Source of the DNA: Octopus vulgaris
Taxonomy: Eukaryota
Assembly (NCBI GenBank): GCA_951406725.2
Contig: OX597815.1
Coordinates: forward strand, 154,318,001 to 154,382,000
Reading direction: 5' to 3'
DNA: 64,000 nucleotides
The first letter of the stretch is position 1. Each line of letters starts with the position of its first letter. Both the position numbers and the translations under genes were made by a program. The notes beneath the pieces are model-generated. The model was given only the letters and a program-made list of their open reading frames with translations. It did no database searches and was not told the DNA's origin. This document shows positions 9,523 to 63,075 of this stretch, in pieces.

Positions 9523-9713
9523 AAAAAGGAAATGAAGAAAATGCTGACAAATAATTGAAGTAATTTAAGTAATTTAATTAGGTGAAAGTTCTTTTTACCG
9601 GTTGCGCATTTGTTATGCTTAAGCATAACAAATGCGCAACCGGTAAAAAGAACTTTCACCTAATTAAATTACTTAAATTACTTCAATTATTTGTCAGCAT
9701 TTTCTTCATTTCC

Positions 9714-9718
<5 letters not shown>
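9523..9718. repeat. Perfect spacer-less palindrome (98-bp arms) between (TA)n tracts
   Basis: Axis at 9620/9621 (GCTT|AAGC). The ORF track gives identical N-terminal peptides on both strands (9432-9659 minus, 9582-9866 plus). Confidence 0.95.
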
Positions 9719-18118: not shown

Positions 18119-18121
<3 letters not shown>

Positions 18122-18253
18122 AAATAGTTAAAAGTGAAAAAACTAGAGAAGGCTTGTTTTAAAAGGTTAAAAAATATATATTTGACTCAAATATATATTT
18201 TTTAACCTTTTAAAACAAGCCTTCTCTAGTTTTTTCACTTTTTACTATTTTCT
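18119..18253. repeat. Palindrome (67-bp arms, 1 mismatch) made from the PLE-terminus family seen at 21852
   Basis: Apex TTTGA-C-TCAAA at 18181-18191; arm sequence matches 21889-21958. Confidence 0.9.
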
Positions 18254-18288
18254 ATATATTCAACCACGCGCTTTCACAAACCAACTTT

Positions 18289-18333
<45 letters not shown>

Positions 18334-21809: not shown

Positions 21810-21851
<42 letters not shown>

Positions 21852-21853
<2 letters not shown>

Positions 21854-22150
21854 TAAGAAAGTTGGTGAAAGCACGTGGTTGAATATATAGAAAATAGTAA
21901 AAGTGAAAAAACTACAGAAGGCTTGTTTTAAAAGGTTAAAAAATATATATTTGAGTCAATATGTCTGAAGAATGTTATAAATATTTTTCATACAATGACA
22001 TAGTATAGAAGAAATGACCGGTTTCGCGTTCAGCTTTTCAAATTTCTTAAAACGTTATGTTTACGTTGAGCGGTGATCGAGATAATAAGTGATTTCTTCC
22101 GGTGTAAGGGAGATAATCGCTTAAAATTATTTTTCACTTTTTACTATTTT
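21852..22150 (-). mobile_element. PLE pseudo-LTR fragment with short inverted tail, between (TA)n tracts
   Basis: Contains the HHR at 22009-22048; 22130-22150 is the reverse complement of 21891-21910. Confidence 0.7.
22009..22048 (-). ncRNA. Minimal type I hammerhead ribozyme with U3:A8 variant core
   Basis: Minus strand AAGAAAT-TTGAAAA-GC-tgaac-GC-GAAA-CCGG-TC-ATTTCTT; perfect 7-bp stem I; palindromic loop III. Confidence 0.75.
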
Positions 22151-22228: not shown

Positions 22229-23842
22229 TTTGATACTTTGATACTTTGATAGGTTTCGGCCATTATTGGCCCAGGCCATGTCTAACTTAATAGCACCACC
22301 TGGTGAAGTCTTTCAAGTCAGAATTTGGGCACTATGGCCCACTCAAGTAGAGAGTTATTGTTTACAGAGACATATCCGGGTGTAGGGGGTTTATCCGGGA
22401 TTTCTTGAAGGAATCTGTCCAAAGACTTCTTGAACCCTATAGGGTCAGTTTCTGTTTTAATGTGTTTTGGTGTAATGTTAAAGAGAGCGGGGCCAATTGA
22501 GGTGAAATAATTGTGCCGTATTGTTGTTATGAGATGAGAGTGCGATTTTTGTTTTGGGCGGATGGCACGGGGCCCAAGCCTTGGATGTACCCTAAAGGTG
22601 ATGCCAACATCATTTGGGCAATGCTGATGGAATATTTTCCACATCATGCAGATGATGTAGCGCTCACGACGACGTTGGAGAGAATAGAGTTTTAGCTTTT
22701 CTAGTCGACCCCAATAGTCGAGGCCTGTCATGCCATCTATCTTTTTTGTGATTGCCCTTTGAGGTGCTTCAACTTTTATGATACCTTGTATTGTGTGGGG
22801 AAACCACAGTGGACAACAGTATTCAAGGTGGGGTCGGGCAAAGGTGGAGAAGAGAAGGATAATGGTGTGGATATCTCTCGACTGGAAAGTTCTGAGAATC
22901 CAGGAACACATTCTGCGGGCCATGTCAACTTTGGTGTTTATATGAGTGGCCCAGCTTACGTTGTTGTCCACAATTACTCCCAAGTCTCTGATGTTGTTGG
23001 ACGCTGCGAGAGTTTCACCTGAAGGAAGGGAGTATGGGAGTTTCAGGGCATCCTCTTTTCCAAAGTGGATTAGCTCAAATTTATCCTCGTTCAGCAGCAT
23101 ATTGTTTTTTTCTGCCCATTGGATAACAGCCAGTAGATCTGACTGAAGGCATGTCCGGTCACTCGCCTCATTTATGACCTTCTGTAGCTTGGAGTCATCT
23201 GCAAAGATTTTTATGTTGCTGTGCTTGATGATGTCATTAATGTCATTAATGTAAATGATGAAAAGAAGTGGGCCCAGCACAGTGCCTTGCGGAACGCCAC
23301 TACTGACTTTGGCTGGGCTTGATTTTACCCCTTCAACTACAACATGTTGAGATCTGTCTGTCAGGAAACACTTAATCCATTTCAGTAACTTTCCAGAGAC
23401 ACCAATGTTGGATAGTTTTTTCAATAGGATCTTGTGATCGACCCTGTCGAAGGCCTTACTGAAATCAAGGTAGATGACATCGGTGTTGGAGCCCTCTCCC
23501 AAAGCTCTCAAAATGTCCTCAAAGTGATGCAGGAGCTGCGTTAGGCAGTCCCTTCCATTACGGAACCCATGTTGGTTGGAGATCAGCCGTCTGTTGCTTT
23601 CCAGAAATTGGGTTATTCGAGATCTCACCACCCTCTCAAATACCTTGATGATATGAGAGGTGAGTGAGATCGGACGGTAATTCACTGCAAGGGACTTGTT
23701 TCCCTTTTTGAAAACTGGGACAACAGACTGGGACAGAAGGTTTTTTGGAATATAGCCAGCATCCAGTGAGTTTCTCCGCAGATTAGCAAGGGGAGATGCA
23801 AGTTGGTGTCGACACACCTTCAGGACACAAGCAGGGAACTTG
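22225..23842 (-). mobile_element. 5'-truncated CR1/L2-group LINE inserted in (TA)n
   Basis: RT ORF, short 3' UTR with GGCC-aataat-GGCC stem-loop, tail (CAAAGTAT)x3; TA repeats on both flanks. Confidence 0.92.
22318..23817 (-). CDS. Non-LTR retrotransposon reverse transcriptase (ORF2, 5'-truncated, no endonuclease domain)
   Basis: Motifs NYRPISLTS, QHGFR, YLDFSKAFDRVDH, SGVPQGTVLGPLLF, FADD, RDLGV, RPHLEYC, LQRRRER. Frame stays open to the truncation edge at ~23841; the listed start is GTG, not a true start. Confidence 0.93.
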   Translation of the reverse strand: MCRHQLASPLANLRRNSLDAGYIPKNLLSQSVVPVFKKGNKSLAVNYRPISLTSHIIKVFERVVRSRITQFLESNRRLISNQHGFRNGRDCLTQLLHHFEDILRALGEGSNTDVIYLDFSKAFDRVDHKILLKKLSNIGVSGKLLKWIKCFLTDRSQHVVVEGVKSSPAKVSSGVPQGTVLGPLLFIIYINDINDIIKHSNIKIFADDSKLQKVINEASDRTCLQSDLLAVIQWAEKNNMLLNEDKFELIHFGKEDALKLPYSLPSGETLAASNNIRDLGVIVDNNVSWATHINTKVDMARRMCSWILRTFQSRDIHTIILLFSTFARPHLEYCCPLWFPHTIQGIIKVEAPQRAITKKIDGMTGLDYWGRLEKLKLYSLQRRRERYIICMMWKIFHQHCPNDVGITFRVHPRLGPRAIRPKQKSHSHLITTIRHNYFTSIGPALFNITPKHIKTETDPIGFKKSLDRFLQEIPDKPPTPGYVSVNNNSLLEWAIVPKF

Positions 23843-23852
23843 TATATATATA

Positions 23853-23995
23853 TATTTCACAGATTGCCAACAATTAGTATTGGGGCTTGAAATACTTCGT
23901 TTATGACATTTCATTTCTGTTAAATTATTTATTTCCTTATTTATTTTACTCTAGAAATACGTTGAATTCTTTCTCACTGCACGCTAAATATCACC

Positions 23996-29445: not shown

Positions 29446-30907
29446 ATATAATCAGTATATGATTTAATTTATTAAACATGGTTCAACAAATTCATTCACA
29501 TTTATGTAATGAGGAGATTGGATGATAAAATGGATTGAACACATTATTACAATATGATTACTAAGAGAAAGTCTATGTACTTCTAACCTCTTTTTTCAGT
29601 TTTTATCCCACCTACCGACGAGTATAAATTTAACTATTCCGATTTTTCTAATTCACGTGTCTGGTGTATCCTTATCAGACGGGTAGTTATGATGGGTATA
29701 CTGGACTTCGTATATTTGTACACCAGTGTCACTTGGATGGCACGCGCTGCTCTCTCACTCAATAATAACATTTTCCTTATTCACCACAAAAATATTGGGG
29801 GAGAGAATAGGACAATACAATGAGGGGTTACAGGAAAACCAAGCAAACTGTGAGGAGGATAATAAAATAAATTATTTGAACAGTGAAACATTCCTCAACA
29901 TAGGAAGACTTTCCTGGGCTTCTCGTAGAGACGTCACATAACCACGGTTGCCCTCACTACTTGTGTACGTACTTTCTCCACATTGTTCTTTTTGTACTTA
30001 CATGCGCTTATTTGGAGCAGGCCCGTTCACTCGGGTCATTCTTACAACATTCACCTACCTTTTAACAAAATTGGAGGAAGTAAGCTCTTCCTAACCTAAA
30101 TAATGTGAAAGAAGTAAACAATCAAGCCATACTTCCAATTTGTTTCATCTTCGTGAGACAGCCCCAAACTCTTAAAACACTCATATTTTGATATTGCTGG
30201 CTTTGATTTTTTCCCTTTAAACTGTCAAATTAAACCAAACGTTTTGAATTATTTTGTGTAGATTTTCTATAAATATTTTTTTCAAAATATTTAATTTCGG
30301 CATTAGATATCGAAGCTTGAAAAAAAACCCCCATATAAACATACCAATAATGACATATCAAAAAATAATGAAATAGAAAATTGCGATAAATTATAGCATA
30401 ATTTCTAATTGATATCGAATCAACATGTACGGTGATGTACAAAATTGTTTATCATCGTACAAACATTTTAGGTTTTCTTTGGTGCTAAAAACACAGGCAT
30501 TTTTAATTTTCATGCGTTACCATTTAGAAATAGTAAAGGTCACATGTTGCGGAATTTTGCTGTTGCAATAAAAAAAAATTAGTAACAAGAATTTAAAAAA
30601 CTTTTTGAACCAGCCAAAACTAAAGTTGAAGCAAAAGAGCACCCATAAATGTATGAGAAACACGCTCAGACACACGCATACTCACACACACAGGTACACA
30701 CGCACACATACACACATACACTCACTCTCAAACGCTCTCATGCACACATATTTACACATACACACATGTAAAAAGGGATAGAAATCACTATACGTTAAGT
30801 CATGTTACTACCTGTAGGTTTAAGACTCATATATGGATATATGCATGAATCTATATATTTATGTATCTCTATCCCTCTTTATATTTGTATATACACTGGT
30901 ATATATA

Positions 30908-31200
30908 CATGTGCTTCCCAGAACCTTATCTATGTCCTTACCTGCTAAGGTTGTGGCCAGAATTATGTGGGCCAAACGAAACTTACTTTGAGACGCAGAA
31001 TCACATTGCATAAAGAATAGATTTGTTTTTCTCAATACATGCAGATGGTCATGAGGGAAGATATCAACAAATGCGCAAGAAATAAGACGCCGAATTTCTA
31101 AATCTTTCCATTATACCAATGCAAAGATTCAATCTCCTTACAAGAACGCCTAAACAAGGAAAACCTGTTCATACAAAAGTACAGACCACACCTTAATATA
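30908..31200 (+). pseudogene. PLE GIY-YIG endonuclease fragment (5'-truncated copy)
   Basis: TCASQNLIYVLTC*GCGQNYVGQTKLTLRRRITLHKE*...IFPLYQCK...ERLNKENLFIQKYRPHLN; homologous to ORF 60194-60529. Confidence 0.85.
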
Positions 31201-31357
31201 CAGACTAGACCACTTCAAAAATTATACTAAGGAGTTAGTTATCCTCCTTGCCACCTGTTGGATCCCTTGGTCCACTCTCTAGACTCATTATTATTTTTCA
31301 AGCACCCAAAATGGCAAGACTCCTTTGTTACAAGAATTGATTACTTCACAATGTCCC

Positions 31358-31391
31358 TTGAAAAGCTAATTTAATTAGCGAAAACCAGTTT
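31358..31391 (+). ncRNA. U3:A8-type hammerhead motif, partly decayed, downstream of the PLE endonuclease
   Basis: TTGAAAA-GCTAAT-tta-ATTAGC-GAAA-ACCAGTT; stem I poorly paired. Confidence 0.55.
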
Positions 31392-31691
31392 GATTTCACG
31401 ACATCTATAAAATATGTATATGTTTTTCTTTAATGTCTTTATAAAAAGATATTAAACTATGTGAAACGAAAGCATTTCTCTTTCACTTTTTATATATGGT
31501 TACCACATATTTTCAACTCATAATCTTGCTACGTGGTGTATACTGAATCTTGAGTACATTTGCTCATATATTCTTATATTTCTAATATATATATAGATAG
31601 ATAGAAAGATAGATAGAGTGAGAGAGAGAGAGAGAAACAAACAAAGAGAAACAAAGATAGAAAGAGAGATGGCTCTCAATCATGTGGCAGA

Positions 31692-53830: not shown

Positions 53831-54399
53831 GTACATTTGTATTCTTTTCAAAAAATCGGCGGAACACTTGAACTAAAAATATAACTAAAAAGTATAGGGT
53901 AAAAATAATGTTCAGATTACACTGTGGCACACCTAGCATCTTCTCGTGGAATACCAATGCGCCGGAGCACTATTATAAGGTACAGGCCATTTGTTGTTAA
54001 TTATTTTTCCATTCGTATGAGATTCAGCACCTAACATTGTAACTGATATTCGTCTACAATGTTTTCCTGCTGTTTGATTAAGGTTATAACCTTATTCAAA
54101 CAGCAGGAAACATTGTAGACGAATATTTTATTTTTAAAAAGAGTAATTTTCCCAAAAATAATAAGTACCCGTGAATCAAAAAATATAAGGACTTCGATAG
54201 TTGTATCAATGTTCAAAGGAAAACAAAAGAAAGTAAGGAGAAAGTAAAGATAAAAAACGGCCGGCGGTAGCTACGGCGACACTAGTAAGAGTCGACATTT
54301 TCGATTTCATTTTTTTGTTATTAAAGGGAGAAATGACTATTTTATTTGTAATATTTATCTTAATCAAATGGCAGGAAAATCAGGTTTGAGTTTTAGTAT

Positions 54400-57823: not shown

Positions 57824-59349
57824 TTGATGGCCGTCCATTGCACTCTATGAATAACTTATATTTTGAATTTGCGGGTTCTTTGGTGGCTAACGAGCCTTGC
57901 TCTGGACAAGCATACACGACTGCAATCATTGCAAACCAAGCTTTTCCTATTCGCAACACCAGCAGTGCGCTTTCGGGCAGCACGTTTAAGTTTTTCATGC
58001 AGAATACGAGCTCTCTCAAAGGTGCTTAACCTTCTTCCTCCATCTTTGGCGATGACAGGCATTGGTCTCCTAGTCAGTCTCCTGCATATTATAGGCCTTT
58101 AATAAGGACTTGATACAGTCCTTAAATTGCAGCCTTGGTTTCTGCTGGGGTCTCTTTCCACCAACAAGCTCCCCATATCGCATCTGTTTAGGGATCCTGC
58201 TATCATTCATTCTCATAAGGTGTCTAGTTCAACGTAACCGGTGTTGTCCGCCATCGCTTCAATATTAAAGATATCAGCTGTTCTCAGGACCTGTGAGTTG
58301 GAGTTTTTTTTAAATCTAGCCAACATTCAGAATGTTTCTGAGACATCTCCGAGGATAGCGTTCAAGGACGCTTACATGACGTTTGTAAAGGGTCCGTATC
58401 TCACATAAGTAAAGGAGCGATGTCAGTACACAAGCACGGTACGCAATAATTTTTGTTTACTTTGTGATGCCATGCTGGAAGAAGACATGAGACTATAGAG
58501 ACCGGAAGGAATCAGTTGCTCTCTGCAGCCTGAATGATATTTCATCCTCCAGAGAGCAAGACCGGCTCACTGTGCAGCCCAGGTTGACAAAATTGTCTAC
58601 TATTTTCAGAATTGTTCCTTCAACCAAGACAGCTCGTTCCAGATATGGATTTCCTGGTGCATGCTGGAACATTACTGCAGTCTTGTCCAGGCTAATGCTG
58701 AGTCCAAATGCCTTGCAAGAAGCAGAAATACGATTCATAACTATTTGCTTGTCATCCTCTGTATGAGTGATTAAGTCACAGTCATCTCCATAAAGGAGGT
58801 CACGAATAAGAGATTTGAAAACTTTTGAATTGACAGCAGATCGGCACAATTTTAAGAGGCGGCTAGAAAATTGATATCTGACGTATATTCCCCGAGAGCT
58901 AACCTTAGCAAAATTATGAGGAAAAGCAGTAGTAAAGTATAAAGTAAAGAGAGTTGGGGCAAGGATATCACCCTACTTGACACCATTATCTACCGGAAAG
59001 TTCCCACCATGCCACCACCAACATTGACCCAAACCTCCATCGTATCGTGAAATGATTCAATTATAAATACAAAGTGATCCGGACATCCAAGTTTGCCAAG
59101 TATTTTCCAATGCAAGGCCCTATTCACAGTATTAAAGTCTTCGTTAAATCAATGAATACCTAGACAAGATCCATATTCTGCTCACAGCACTTCTCCATCT
59201 GTCTTTCTGTGAAAATCATATCCATTGTCCCTCTACCAGATCGGAAGCCAAATTGAGATTCAAATAGGACATCATTTCCGAGACACCCATTCAGACGGGA
59301 AAGAACAATATTTGCAAGAACCTTGCCAGCAGATGAGAGTAGAGCAATG
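57824..59349 (-). pseudogene. RTE-clade LINE, 5'-truncated and frameshifted
   Basis: IALLSSAGKVLA, ESQFGFRSGRGTMDMIF, IRDLLYGDDCDL, FGLSISLDKT, C-terminal CNDCSRVC...LVSHQR zinc finger, microsatellite tail. Confidence 0.9.
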
Positions 59350-61022
59350 GGTACGAGAATGGCCCCCTTTTCTAACCTAGTCATGGGATATCTAGAAATC
59401 AGATACTAGAAAAATACAGCAACCCATTCTCCCCCTACATAGAAAATAACTGGAAGAGGTATCTGGATGACTGTTTCATTCTTTGGCATGAAAGTATACA
59501 GAGACTTAAAGAATGTCAAGCACATATAAATGAACTTCACGTAAACGTTTAATTCACGCTGGAATATAGCCATCAGCAACGTCCTTTCCTCGACTTCCTC
59601 ATAAAGAAATCTAACAACAAAATAGAAACAGATATATAATATAAGACCGCGGACTAAGCATTATCTACCATTCAAGTCATGCCACCCCAGACACACTAGA
59701 ATGAATATTCCTTTCAACCTAGCAAAAAGGATCTGTACTATAGCTTCTAATACAAGCACAAGGGACACACAACTACATGAACTAAAGGATGCACTCATCA
59801 CCAGGAGCTACCCACCATCATTAATTGATATATGCTTTCAACTTGCCCTCCGACTCAACATCCACGAACTCGGGCATCCCAAATTAAAAAAGGATTCACA
59901 GCCAAAAGCTCTACTATACATCTCCACACACAACCCTCTTAACAATGAAGCCTTCGACACCATCTTCGAAAACAATCCCCTGCTAAAAAGGGAGGGACCA
60001 CAGAATGAACGCACACCATCATAAAGATCAAAAGACAGCCAAAATCTATAAAAGTCTCCTATCACAAGCCTGAATACACGCGACAACAACACTGAAGCTG
60101 TGAGTAAAAAAATACGGAAGACCTAACTGTAGTATATGCGTCAATCTAATTGATGGATAAGAGTTCTCTTTCAAACAGGGTCAACGTTTTACAGTGAAAA
60201 ACACCTTCACGTGTGCTTCGAAGAACCTGATATACGTATTAACTTGTTCTGCGTGTCGAGAGCAATACATAGGCCAAACCGAAAACAGTCTATGTCAAAG
60301 GATGTCTCTGCGTAGACCTCAGATCAAAATTCGGAAATACAGAAAAATAGCATTCAGCGAACACATCGATATTTGCACCAATAACAACCAACCGAGCATC
60401 AGGATTTTCCCCCTCTATCAACATGCAGTCATCGCATTAGTAAAGAGTCAATATAAACCCCTTTTGAATGTGTCCACCACAAATGACACTATTACAAGGG
60501 CCTTAGAACAATACACACGCAAATATTAAAAACGATATATTCAGAAGAGTGACTACTCATGAATTTATTAAGAACAATTCCAATCACCACTATGACAAAC
60601 GTAACGGGACACTTTTAAGTCACTTGACCATTTAAGAGGAATTCCACCAACATCCTGCTATTGTCATACCATTCCTGCATTCGTCTTCTTCCTCTTCTTG
60701 TTGTTCTTCTTCTCCTTACTCAACCACTACTGCTGCATAAACAGTCAAAAACAAGAATTCATATCAAACTATTACTATCGGCTGCCTATTACCTAGGACT
60801 CACATGAGTAAAAAAGGTAGACAGAGACGGACAGAAAAAAGGAAAGTGTCCCTTACATTTGAAAATTATAGGAATCCTATGAAAAAACATTTAATTTAAC
60901 TTTTCCAAAATTTGATTGTTTTCCATGCTTTAAAAAAGTCTGAAACCGGTACTAAAATGTTCTTCATGATAAAGTTATTTTAGCATTTCCTACCTTGTCT
61001 TATTTTCCTTATACGTATCAAC

Positions 61023-61084: not shown

Positions 61085-63075
61085 AATAACTGTGTTAGGA
61101 GTGCTTCTGCCATCGGCCTATGGCGTAACGCCAGCAATGTCATAACATGGTTTAAAACCTATATTGAAATGGGAAGAGGAAGGTTTATCCAATTCGATAT
61201 AGTGGACTTTTACTCATCTGTATCGAGGGGCCTCCTTTGTAAGGCACTTGATTGAAGTGAGTGAGGGGGACATACACATTATCATGCACGCCAGAAGGAC
61301 TCTACTATTCAGTAAGGGGTCGGTCTGAGCCAAACAAACTGTCTCAGAATGCTCCTTCAACGTAATAATCGACGCTTTTGACATTTGTGACATTCGTCCT
61401 TGATTTACTCTAAAGAAGTTCCCTTGCAGTAGCTTTGGCCTCTACGGGGATGATGCACTGATCATATGAAGACAGGTAAATGGCCACACGCTAGATAAGC
61501 TTAGAAAGGTCCTCACCAGTACCATGAATTCTCTTGGACTTCATGTCCTGAGAGAAACCAACCTTAAAACGGTGGATTTCCTTCATGTGACCCTGGACTT
61601 CGAGTCCGATGCCTATAGACATTTTAGGAAGCCATATGAGAAGCTATCATATAGGTACCAGGATTTTTGATGTTGCCGCTCCACATTATAACGAGGCCCC
61701 GGCGCCAACCGTTTCAAGGAAAGTATTTGTTATACGGCAGACCCTAACCTCTCTTAGAGAAAACACCACCGGAAAGTGTTGTGGTTTGCACTGCCCTTTA
61801 GTTTAAATGTTAAAATTCGAGTACGTAAGATTTTCCTTAGTTTAGGAGACAAACACTTCCCTCTTGCACATAGTTCCAGTAAAATATTTAACGGGCACAC
61901 AAAAAATACCTTAGAAGGTTGGCTGAAACTTGAGAATGGGGCAGGATGTCCATATAGGGGTAACCAACAAGTTCGCTGAACGACCACTGTAATACGGAAA
62001 CCGTCATATACAAGGCTTAGGTAACAGCAATAGGACCAAATGAGAAACCAAACTTGCGAAAGTACGTGGAAGCAGCTGAATGTCCTTTCAGAACCCGTTA
62101 TACCAACCACATTTCCTTCTTCAAATCTCAGAGAGATGCAACGCCACAATTCTGACAAAGCAGGCATAGTCATTGACAGAAAGCACCACCGGGGACAGCA
62201 TAACCTGGAGGATTCTAGAGATATGTATAGCGTACTTCAGTAGCAGCAGGAAGTGCAGATTATACCTGGCTGAGAAAGAAAGCGATTTTATAGAGCTCTC
62301 AGCACTCAGACATCTACCTGAACAGGAGACATGACATTTTTAATCTTTGCTCACATGAAAGGAGGTACATCCTATCATAGCTACGTGCCCCATCGCGACT
62401 GTAATCACCACTACCTCAGCTTTGCTGTTTATAGCTGGAGATCCGACAAAGAGTTTGACCAGACCATACACAAACTCACACGCCCTAACACGCACTCACA
62501 AACTCACACGCCCTAACACGGCGGACATCCACTCAATAGACCATTTTCTACCCCACCGCGCAATATAATACCCCACACATATTGTACCCCTATACACATC
62601 GCATACATAGATAAACACCACAACAATTTAACCAAATCATAACAGAGAGAAAACACACTAACGAACAGTGATGTATATGCGGACGTTGGACCCCCTCACC
62701 CGCAAACGCTATACATATTCCAGTACACACATTCCATTTTTACAAGAGCACCAACCTTAAAGGTAAATACATTTCCCATAATCTCTTTTCCAGAAAACTC
62801 TTGCCAACTTGCAACAGCCGCTTTCAGTGCCAAGGGACATAACTCTTAACTAACACTTGCTCAGTTCGTTTAATCGTTTTTTTTATCACAGCAACCACAA
62901 ACCAGATGTATCTGTTCACGTTCAATATTAGAGAACAGTCGTCATATGACATTTCATAACTGCTATTTCTGAAGAGTATAGGGGTACATAACTGGACAGT
63001 TACCTAACATTCCGTTGAGCTCTTAGTGCGAAATCGATTGGCAAGATCGACCGTAATGGATATATAATACAGTAC
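61085..63075 (+). mobile_element. Second Penelope-like element of a different clade, decayed with deletions
   Basis: LWRNASNVITWFK, FIQFDIVDFYSSV, GLYGDDAL, VDFLHVTLD, CPYRGN...VIYKA; HHR remnant near the 3' end. Confidence 0.82.
62963..63059 (+). ncRNA. Hammerhead motif with long stem II, probably inactivated
   Basis: CTGAAGA-GTATAGGGGT...GCTCTTAGTGC-GAAA-TCGATT-ggcaa-GATCGA-CC; U16.1 replaced by C and stem I damaged. Confidence 0.65.

Follow-up and report, generated by a model that had tools for sequence, protein, structure and literature searches.

The hammerhead at 22009..22048 and its host element

The window analysed here, a stretch of 64,000 nucleotides of the Octopus vulgaris genome (contig OX597815.1, positions 154,318,001 to 154,382,000), carries on its minus strand a minimal type I hammerhead (22009..22048), which was identified on basis of a descriptor match, the counts within its family (family A) and the fold of a dimer. 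The core reads UUGAAAA (22035..22041, minus strand), with U3 at 22041 and A8 at 22036. Stem I is made up of AAGAAAU and AUUUCUU (7 bp) and stem II of 2 bp only (GC-5nt-GC), and the latter is followed by GAAA, CCGG, UC and the 3' strand of stem I. All parts of a type I three-way junction were recovered, i.e. stem I, the core strand, stem II, GAAA, the A15.1-U16.1 pair and H17, and the cut is predicted after C17 (22016). The self-complementary ACCGGU that runs from A15.1 to U16.1 (22017..22022, minus strand) is predicted by the minimum-energy fold of two copies to form helix III between them, and would represent the short palindromic helix III with which a double hammerhead is possible. The literal CUGANGA consensus is absent from this site, where the core fits the published U3-A8 variant. 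An earlier note on the window had claimed a hammerhead with this core, a 7-bp stem I and GAAA-CCGG-UC, in which U3-A8 preserves the 3:8 pair; both claims hold, as the motif has a Watson-Crick U3:A8 pair, and the strand, which the note left unstated, is the minus strand.

With positions 3 and 8 left free and a stem I of at least 5 bp, the descriptor gave two matches within the window, namely this motif and a loose A+T-rich one at 54333. In an Rfam scan of the window the hammerhead was absent among the best 150 of 187 matches (E <= 5), and the matches listed were nearly all microRNA models on microsatellites. Two points weigh against the interpretation preferred below: stem II has just 2 bp, and A1.1 is missing from many family A copies (L001, L006, L010, L018 and others), where one surplus U separates stem I from U3.

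The motif lies within the 5'-truncated 3' end (3' UTR/pLTR plus tail) of a PLE of family A (21835..22132, minus strand), which ends at a (TA)n run and is 96% identical over 303 nt to L005, a copy that has a GIY-YIG upstream. Part of the family A ORF is found in inverted orientation at 22259..22324 (plus strand; 98% over 66 nt to L005), as is usual for the 5' inversions of PLEs. The fragment is adjoined by an ORF of 512 aa (22318..23856, minus strand), which appears from its translation to be of LINE type. This ORF was rejected as the parent of the hammerhead, considering its RVT_1 domain (Pfam, E 2.7e-31) and the lack of a tblastn match to the PLE ORF; the motif in the window does not follow an ORF of its own, and the one upstream encodes an unrelated RT.

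In fuller copies (L006, L024, L025, L027 and L033) the distance from the end of the RT and GIY-YIG ORFs to the core downstream is 55-120 nt. Family A has a single ORF, with the RT followed by a C-terminal GIY-YIG and a Cx4CxxC linker, as in endonuclease-positive PLEs, and its homologues carry PF00078 and PF01541. In one locus (L185) two pLTR copies of the hammerhead, 3,468 nt apart, flank the ORF; such a partial-tandem pLTR with a hammerhead, together with the inverted 5' pieces in the window, is characteristic of the Neptune type. The same domain order, linker and hammerhead in the pLTR are given for Neptune PLEs in the available text of Craig et al. 2021 (PMC8557442). On basis of domain order and linker motif the host is best described as a Neptune-type PLE, with the related Nematis clade as a possibility. 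A non-LTR retrozyme, which is a non-coding tandem unit of 150-400 bp without an ORF of its own, is not what we found, as family A has its own RT and GIY-YIG ORF. The site is an ordinary member of a known hammerhead class.

Three further sites in the window

The earlier note had connected the motif to sites at 31358, 60930 and 9621. Each was searched genome-wide and aligned with its 12-15 best relatives, and all three are damaged (decayed or truncated) copies. The first follows a broken GIY-YIG endonuclease remnant of family B (30904..31197, plus strand), which is 51% identical to the family A endonuclease. An alignment of 15 copies identifies it as a decayed U3:A8 hammerhead (31351..31396, plus strand), with the extra C before U3 and the extra A after GAAA that are traits of family B. 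In this copy the palindrome has been lost by a change of CCGG to CCAG and the 3' strand of stem I is damaged. U3 is present in all 15 aligned rows, and stem II has 4 bp in most of them and 6 bp in two, each via a different single change. The core that had been claimed here is therefore present, and the 6-bp stem II that had been claimed with it is copy-specific.

The second site belongs to family C and is a hammerhead remnant with an internal deletion of around 18 nt (60930..60959, plus strand), as established from 15 aligned copies and the family counts. It follows a broken remnant of the RT thumb and GIY-YIG (59344..60475, plus strand) that is homologous to the one beside 31358, so that both motifs do follow homologous GIY-YIG ORFs, as had been noted, albeit broken ones. 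The reading AG-t-CT proposed for stem II was mistaken, as the 15-copy alignment reveals copy-specific damage; in 8 of the 15 relatives TTGANAA precedes a stem II of 4 bp. The family C tail is immediately followed by a decayed RT of a different PLE type (61090-62300, plus strand), with a weak match to the RT of L199.

The third site is part of a perfect palindrome (9523..9718), in which two family E PLE tails are paired in inverse orientation, with arms of 98 bp. The family E hammerhead at 9620..9651 (plus strand) is truncated, starts at position 7 where the copy ends at the centre of the palindrome, lacks positions 3-6 and has C13 (9637) for A13. The suggestion that the same core might occur here is right for the family, which has U3:A8; the copy itself is truncated, and the family reads GCAA and not GAAA. 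Tails of family A form a further inverted pair at 18119-18311, whose truncation lies downstream of the hammerhead.

Abundance of the U3:A8 core in the genome

The earlier note had called for a genome-wide count of the core. We searched the genome (2.8 Gb) with the pattern TTGAAAA-N6-22-GAAACCGGTC, taking the reversed pattern as control, and obtained 1,407 matches (control 5). When the CCGG tail was combined with the canonical core, there were 140 matches (control 18), mostly from a tandem repeat of around 360 bp, and with TA/TT tails this core gave 68 matches (control 26). A looser U3 pattern with TA/TT tails yielded 11,188 matches (control 1,702), with A8 in around 85 of the first 100 matches listed (counted by hand). 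Since CCGG-tailed U3:A8 cores are around ten times as frequent as canonical ones, CUGANGA descriptors and Rfam miss most hammerheads of the U3:A8 clade, and it was rightly predicted that CUGANGA-only searches would pass over the motif. Canonical minimal hammerheads of other families are nevertheless commoner overall (16,259 matches versus 934). Within these matches are two very abundant canonical repeats (L265-L294), for which a PLE ORF was not seen within 1.5 kb in 30 loci and which are likely non-autonomous elements. Evenly spaced samples totalling 600 kb contained 12 matches (7 U3:A8, 3 C3:G8, 1 G3:C8 and 1 U3:C8; reversed control 2), and five of the seven U3:A8 matches were of the U3-A8 retrozyme type.

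The 19 family A copies without U3 have G (9), A (6) or C (4) at position 3 and A8 throughout, and in family C we counted 3,327 U3:A8, 28 C3:A8, 31 U3:G8 and 3 C3:G8 copies. Contigs of four other sequencing runs had no letter but U at position 3 and none but A at position 8. In families A and C the master state is U3:A8. A revertant C3:G8 subfamily may exist in family C, where such copies exceed expectation (3 versus 0.31, p ~0.004), but they are of mixed age, and two that were aligned (L330 and L378) had no obvious diagnostic changes in common by eye. The idea that UUGAAAA is CUGANGA decayed by A+T bias in dead copies, or a chance match, may appeal to the A+T richness of the genome and to the decayed or truncated state of the three further window sites, but it is already refuted by the family C counts, by the A8 that all 19 non-U3 family A copies have kept, by controls of only 0-5 matches and by copies that are 91-98% identical, and we give it next to no credence.

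Phylogenetic origin of the U3:A8 pair

Trees (LG+G4) were based on tblastn matches of individual copies, projected on one family E ORF with stops as X. In the tree of the Octopus copies, the U3 families A-G are separated from family I, which has C3:G8, with a support of 100/100 and at 35-75% protein identity. Two candidate C3:G8 outgroups were discarded: L241 proved to be a U3:A8 family and the ACGCGTG-CTGAGGA family has no linked ORF.

We also scanned 97 foreign PLE loci, some of which have two pLTRs or a common contig, with positions 3 and 8 free, and found 42 matches on the sense strand and 7 on the antisense strand. Positions 3 and 8 form a Watson-Crick pair in 37 of the 42 sense-strand matches (32 C:G, 4 U:A and 1 G:C) and are unpaired or wobble in the other five. 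Swapped G3:C8 cores were observed at L197:3848, L496:117 and L256:348, in the Octopus genome and one foreign PLE, the L256 match being doubtful. PLE ORFs with hammerheads were also seen in bacterial MAG assemblies (L537-L554), which likely represent host-animal DNA in the bins.

A tree of 43 rows includes 30 foreign loci with a called motif, the other foreign loci having been left out. It is midpoint-rooted, and row L396, whose own motifs are single mutants, was given the state of its family; the family D ORF lies around 2 kb from its motif, and the motif families A2, E2 and J, which have no linked ORF, fall outside the tree. The 11 Octopus rows with U3 form one clade (100/100) among C3:G8 elements, which places the core on a PLE phylogeny, as the earlier note had proposed to do. 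Among the foreign loci, L466 is the closest relative by identity (52%), and it combines CUGACGA with an identical CCGG. The U3 label requires five changes on this tree, at least four of which are forced by the starred branches, and a single U3 origin is rejected (p-AU 1e-6, for a group defined by its motif and in a test run after the tree had been seen). In independent pairs U3 goes with A8 in 4 of 4 cases (p = 0.125), a number of pairs that cannot reach significance.

The four families of the window descend from one U3 ancestor and have inherited one swap; the 'repeated double change' that had been put forward for the window sites does not apply to them, and separate U3:A8 origins, at least four, appear only in distant PLEs. 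The proposal that the core recurs as a lineage was right: seven U3-bearing families form the one clade, and their helices have been turned over. Across families A-F, at 43-75% protein identity, UUGANAA and the CCGG-U tail are retained, with one-off decay in single copies. Stems I and II differ in sequence and yet remain paired in families A-D, F, I and the foreign loci; in families E and G stem I has just 2 bp next to the core. A surviving U3·G8 intermediate towards U3:A8 was considered and rejected, as family G, the family with U3·G8, is nested as the sister of family A.

Families with deviating cores

Several related families have cores that are expected to be weaker (U3·G8, C4 and C13). In family G (L353-L377) U3 occurs in 21 of 25 copies and G8 in 23 of 25, which gives a wobble; this family also has a stem II loop of 3 nt. 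Family I (L398-L457) is young and abundant, and its youngest subfamily, with many open frames of 775 aa, has C4 (CCGAAGA) in 30 of 30 loci; in the older subfamilies the core is canonical and helix III is GTAC (1,146 matches versus 79).

Family E (L108-L154, L186) is very young, with around 2,000 near-identical copies. Relatives of the 9621 copy that are intact read UUGAUAA in the core, with a stem II of 4 bp and GCAA for GAAA, and a 6-bp part of stem I is displaced by 5 nt. GCAA, and thus the absence of A13, is the rule here (2,085 matches versus 28), and 99 of the first 100 GCAA matches listed belonged to family E. Among its 18 copies without C at position 13 none had A, and four other sequencing runs contained no letter but C at this position. 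Mutations of A13 slow hammerheads 10-100-fold, according to the available part of PMC4075628. A natural A13C hammerhead was not found in the literature searched, including the accessible part of PMC3088659, although Lunse et al. 2017 and Hammann et al. 2012 may list U3:A8 or C13 PLE variants. Compensation between positions 13 and 17 (C13 with A17) was considered and is unsupported, as families C and E2 combine A17 with A13.

The 5' ends of family E were inspected in 20 stretches that were picked by hand, mainly for a missing core match or close inverted pairs. Family E sequence sets in precisely at the predicted cut in two independent events, namely in an inverted pair (L593) and in a chimera that is present in duplicate (L586/L587). 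Two of around seven events at one of 37 positions corresponds to p = 0.014, or 0.10 when one base on either side is allowed. In the chimera (L586/L587:68-171, G000:C1:1715990-1719740) a retrozyme-related hammerhead ends at its GUC, and nucleotide 1.1 is the first of family E; the retrozyme-related part is 90% identical over 41 nt to L066/L067, and the two copies of the chimera, which have the same flanks, lie 3,580 nt from each other. These starts are suggestive of cleavage and may hint at it. Most other 5' ends of the family fall between -25 and -37 relative to the cut (L585-L604) and possibly reflect the transcription start of the pLTR or microhomology to (TA)n. A TATA-like box is seen around 25-30 nt ahead of the family E 5' ends, with CCAAT-like and GC-rich motifs upstream. 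As a tentative and rather doubtful reading, the spreading family E might use an A13C core with a displaced stem I that still cuts in vivo after A17, and L586/L587 might be the fossil of two ribozyme-cut RNAs that were joined end to end by ligation or by RT jumping. If true, this join would show how PLEs mobilise retrozymes.

Folding, cleavage and selection

The monomer of the 22009 motif has a minimum of -3.0 kcal/mol and reaches +3.5 kcal/mol when A15.1-U16.1 is forced, meaning that helix III is unclosed in one copy, and within 86 or 141 nt of context the hammerhead shifts or is lost. The minimum-energy fold of two copies is a double hammerhead through ACCGGU (-13.3 kcal/mol), in agreement with the dimer model for PLE hammerheads. 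Residue 8 acts via its 2'-OH, and what counts is therefore the 3:8 pair alone. The literature suggests that a U3:A8 core would be active. In the model that we propose, two copies would pair through ACCGGU into a double hammerhead, the second copy being supplied by tandem pLTRs or by a second transcript, and the RNA of the element would likely be cut slowly after C17. Weak in vitro cleavage, even as dimers, has been published for the minimal hammerheads of PLEs. As hypothesised in published work, such cleavage would likely process the precursor RNA of the PLE.

The 5' ends of 30 family A copies, picked by a motif downstream of the cut, lie at least 190 nt upstream (15 copies), at -42 to -56 (7), at -17 to -30 (3) or at -4 to +4 (5). 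When inversions are counted once, 4 of 13 events are near the cut, with p = 0.002-0.008 against 200 nt and 0.21 against the nearest 70 nt, a background with which the excess at the cut disappears.

Selection on catalysis, which the earlier note had read from the repeated core, can be argued from a core that has persisted as stems I and II were turned over, and from the separate swaps in distant PLEs. The fixation of U3·G8, C4 and C13 in sister families, however, makes the constraint on the rate look loose. Alternatively, the fold could be kept for a role that is not or barely catalytic, such as RNA dimerisation, RT binding or definition of the template end, with U3:A8 as a tolerated founder state and a core that drifts or is attenuated. 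The C13 (2,085 matches), C4 (many intact 775-aa ORFs) and U3·G8 families have indeed spread well, copies reach around 170 nt past the cut site, so that their 3' end is not determined by the cut, and Naiad PLEs thrive without canonical hammerheads, as stated in the part of PMC8557442 available. Such a role leaves unexplained, however, why the catalytic positions stay across around 50% protein divergence while the helices turn over, why positions 3 and 8 are Watson-Crick paired in nearly all foreign matches and why some insertions start exactly at the predicted cut, and we regard it as unlikely. We thus consider it highly probable that the 22009 motif is the pLTR hammerhead of a Neptune-type PLE, with U3:A8 for C3:G8, a predicted dimer through ACCGGU and a likely slow cut after C17.

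The swap of the 3:8 pair as a unit in several separate PLE lines adds comparative evidence to a tertiary pair already seen in structures, and the natural C3:G8, U3:A8, U3·G8, C4 and C13 cores form a panel for the question whether PLE retrotransposition needs efficient cutting.

Comparison with known hammerheads

The U3:A8 variant itself has already been published, so that the gain is modest; what we confirm is its inheritance within a lineage. Presented as a discovery in the earlier note, the covariation is already in print. In the available text of Cervera and de la Pena 2014 (PMC4209133) U3-A8 replaces C3-G8, with around 1,300 matches in S. mansoni; the alignment, as far as accessible, has a row with exactly UUGAAAA (S. 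mansoni(4), Cercyon PLE), a relative from S. japonicum with CUGAAGA and a row with U3·G8, and all of its 56 rows have GAAA and none GCAA. Perreault et al. 2011 (PMC3088659) describe, in the portion available, several natural examples of C3/G8 to U3/A8 covariation that are active in vitro, as well as insertions near position 3 (2a, 2b) and U4C. In that portion the variants are neither linked to PLEs nor placed on a phylogeny, unlike the U3:A8 pair here.

As described in the accessible text of PMC4209133, PLE hammerheads share with the 22009 motif the type I topology, the location in PLE terminal repeats, the palindromic helix III and the dimer mode. Compared to the variant in that text, family A differs in its Neptune-type host, CCGG helix III, 2-bp stem II and 7-bp stem I, and in lacking an extra nucleotide after A9. 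With the Neptune clade, as far as covered by the available part of PMC8557442, the family has in common the domain layout, the inverted 5' pieces, the insertion at microsatellites and the pLTR hammerhead. Unlike the non-coding tandem repeats of metazoan non-LTR retrozymes, the motif sits in an autonomous, ORF-bearing family. Retrozymes with tandem hammerhead repeats of 350-360 bp occur in the same genome with C3:G8 as well as U3:A8 cores, and the available text of a preprint (10.64898/2026.07.22.740005) argues that tandem hammerhead retrozymes derive from the pLTRs of PLEs.
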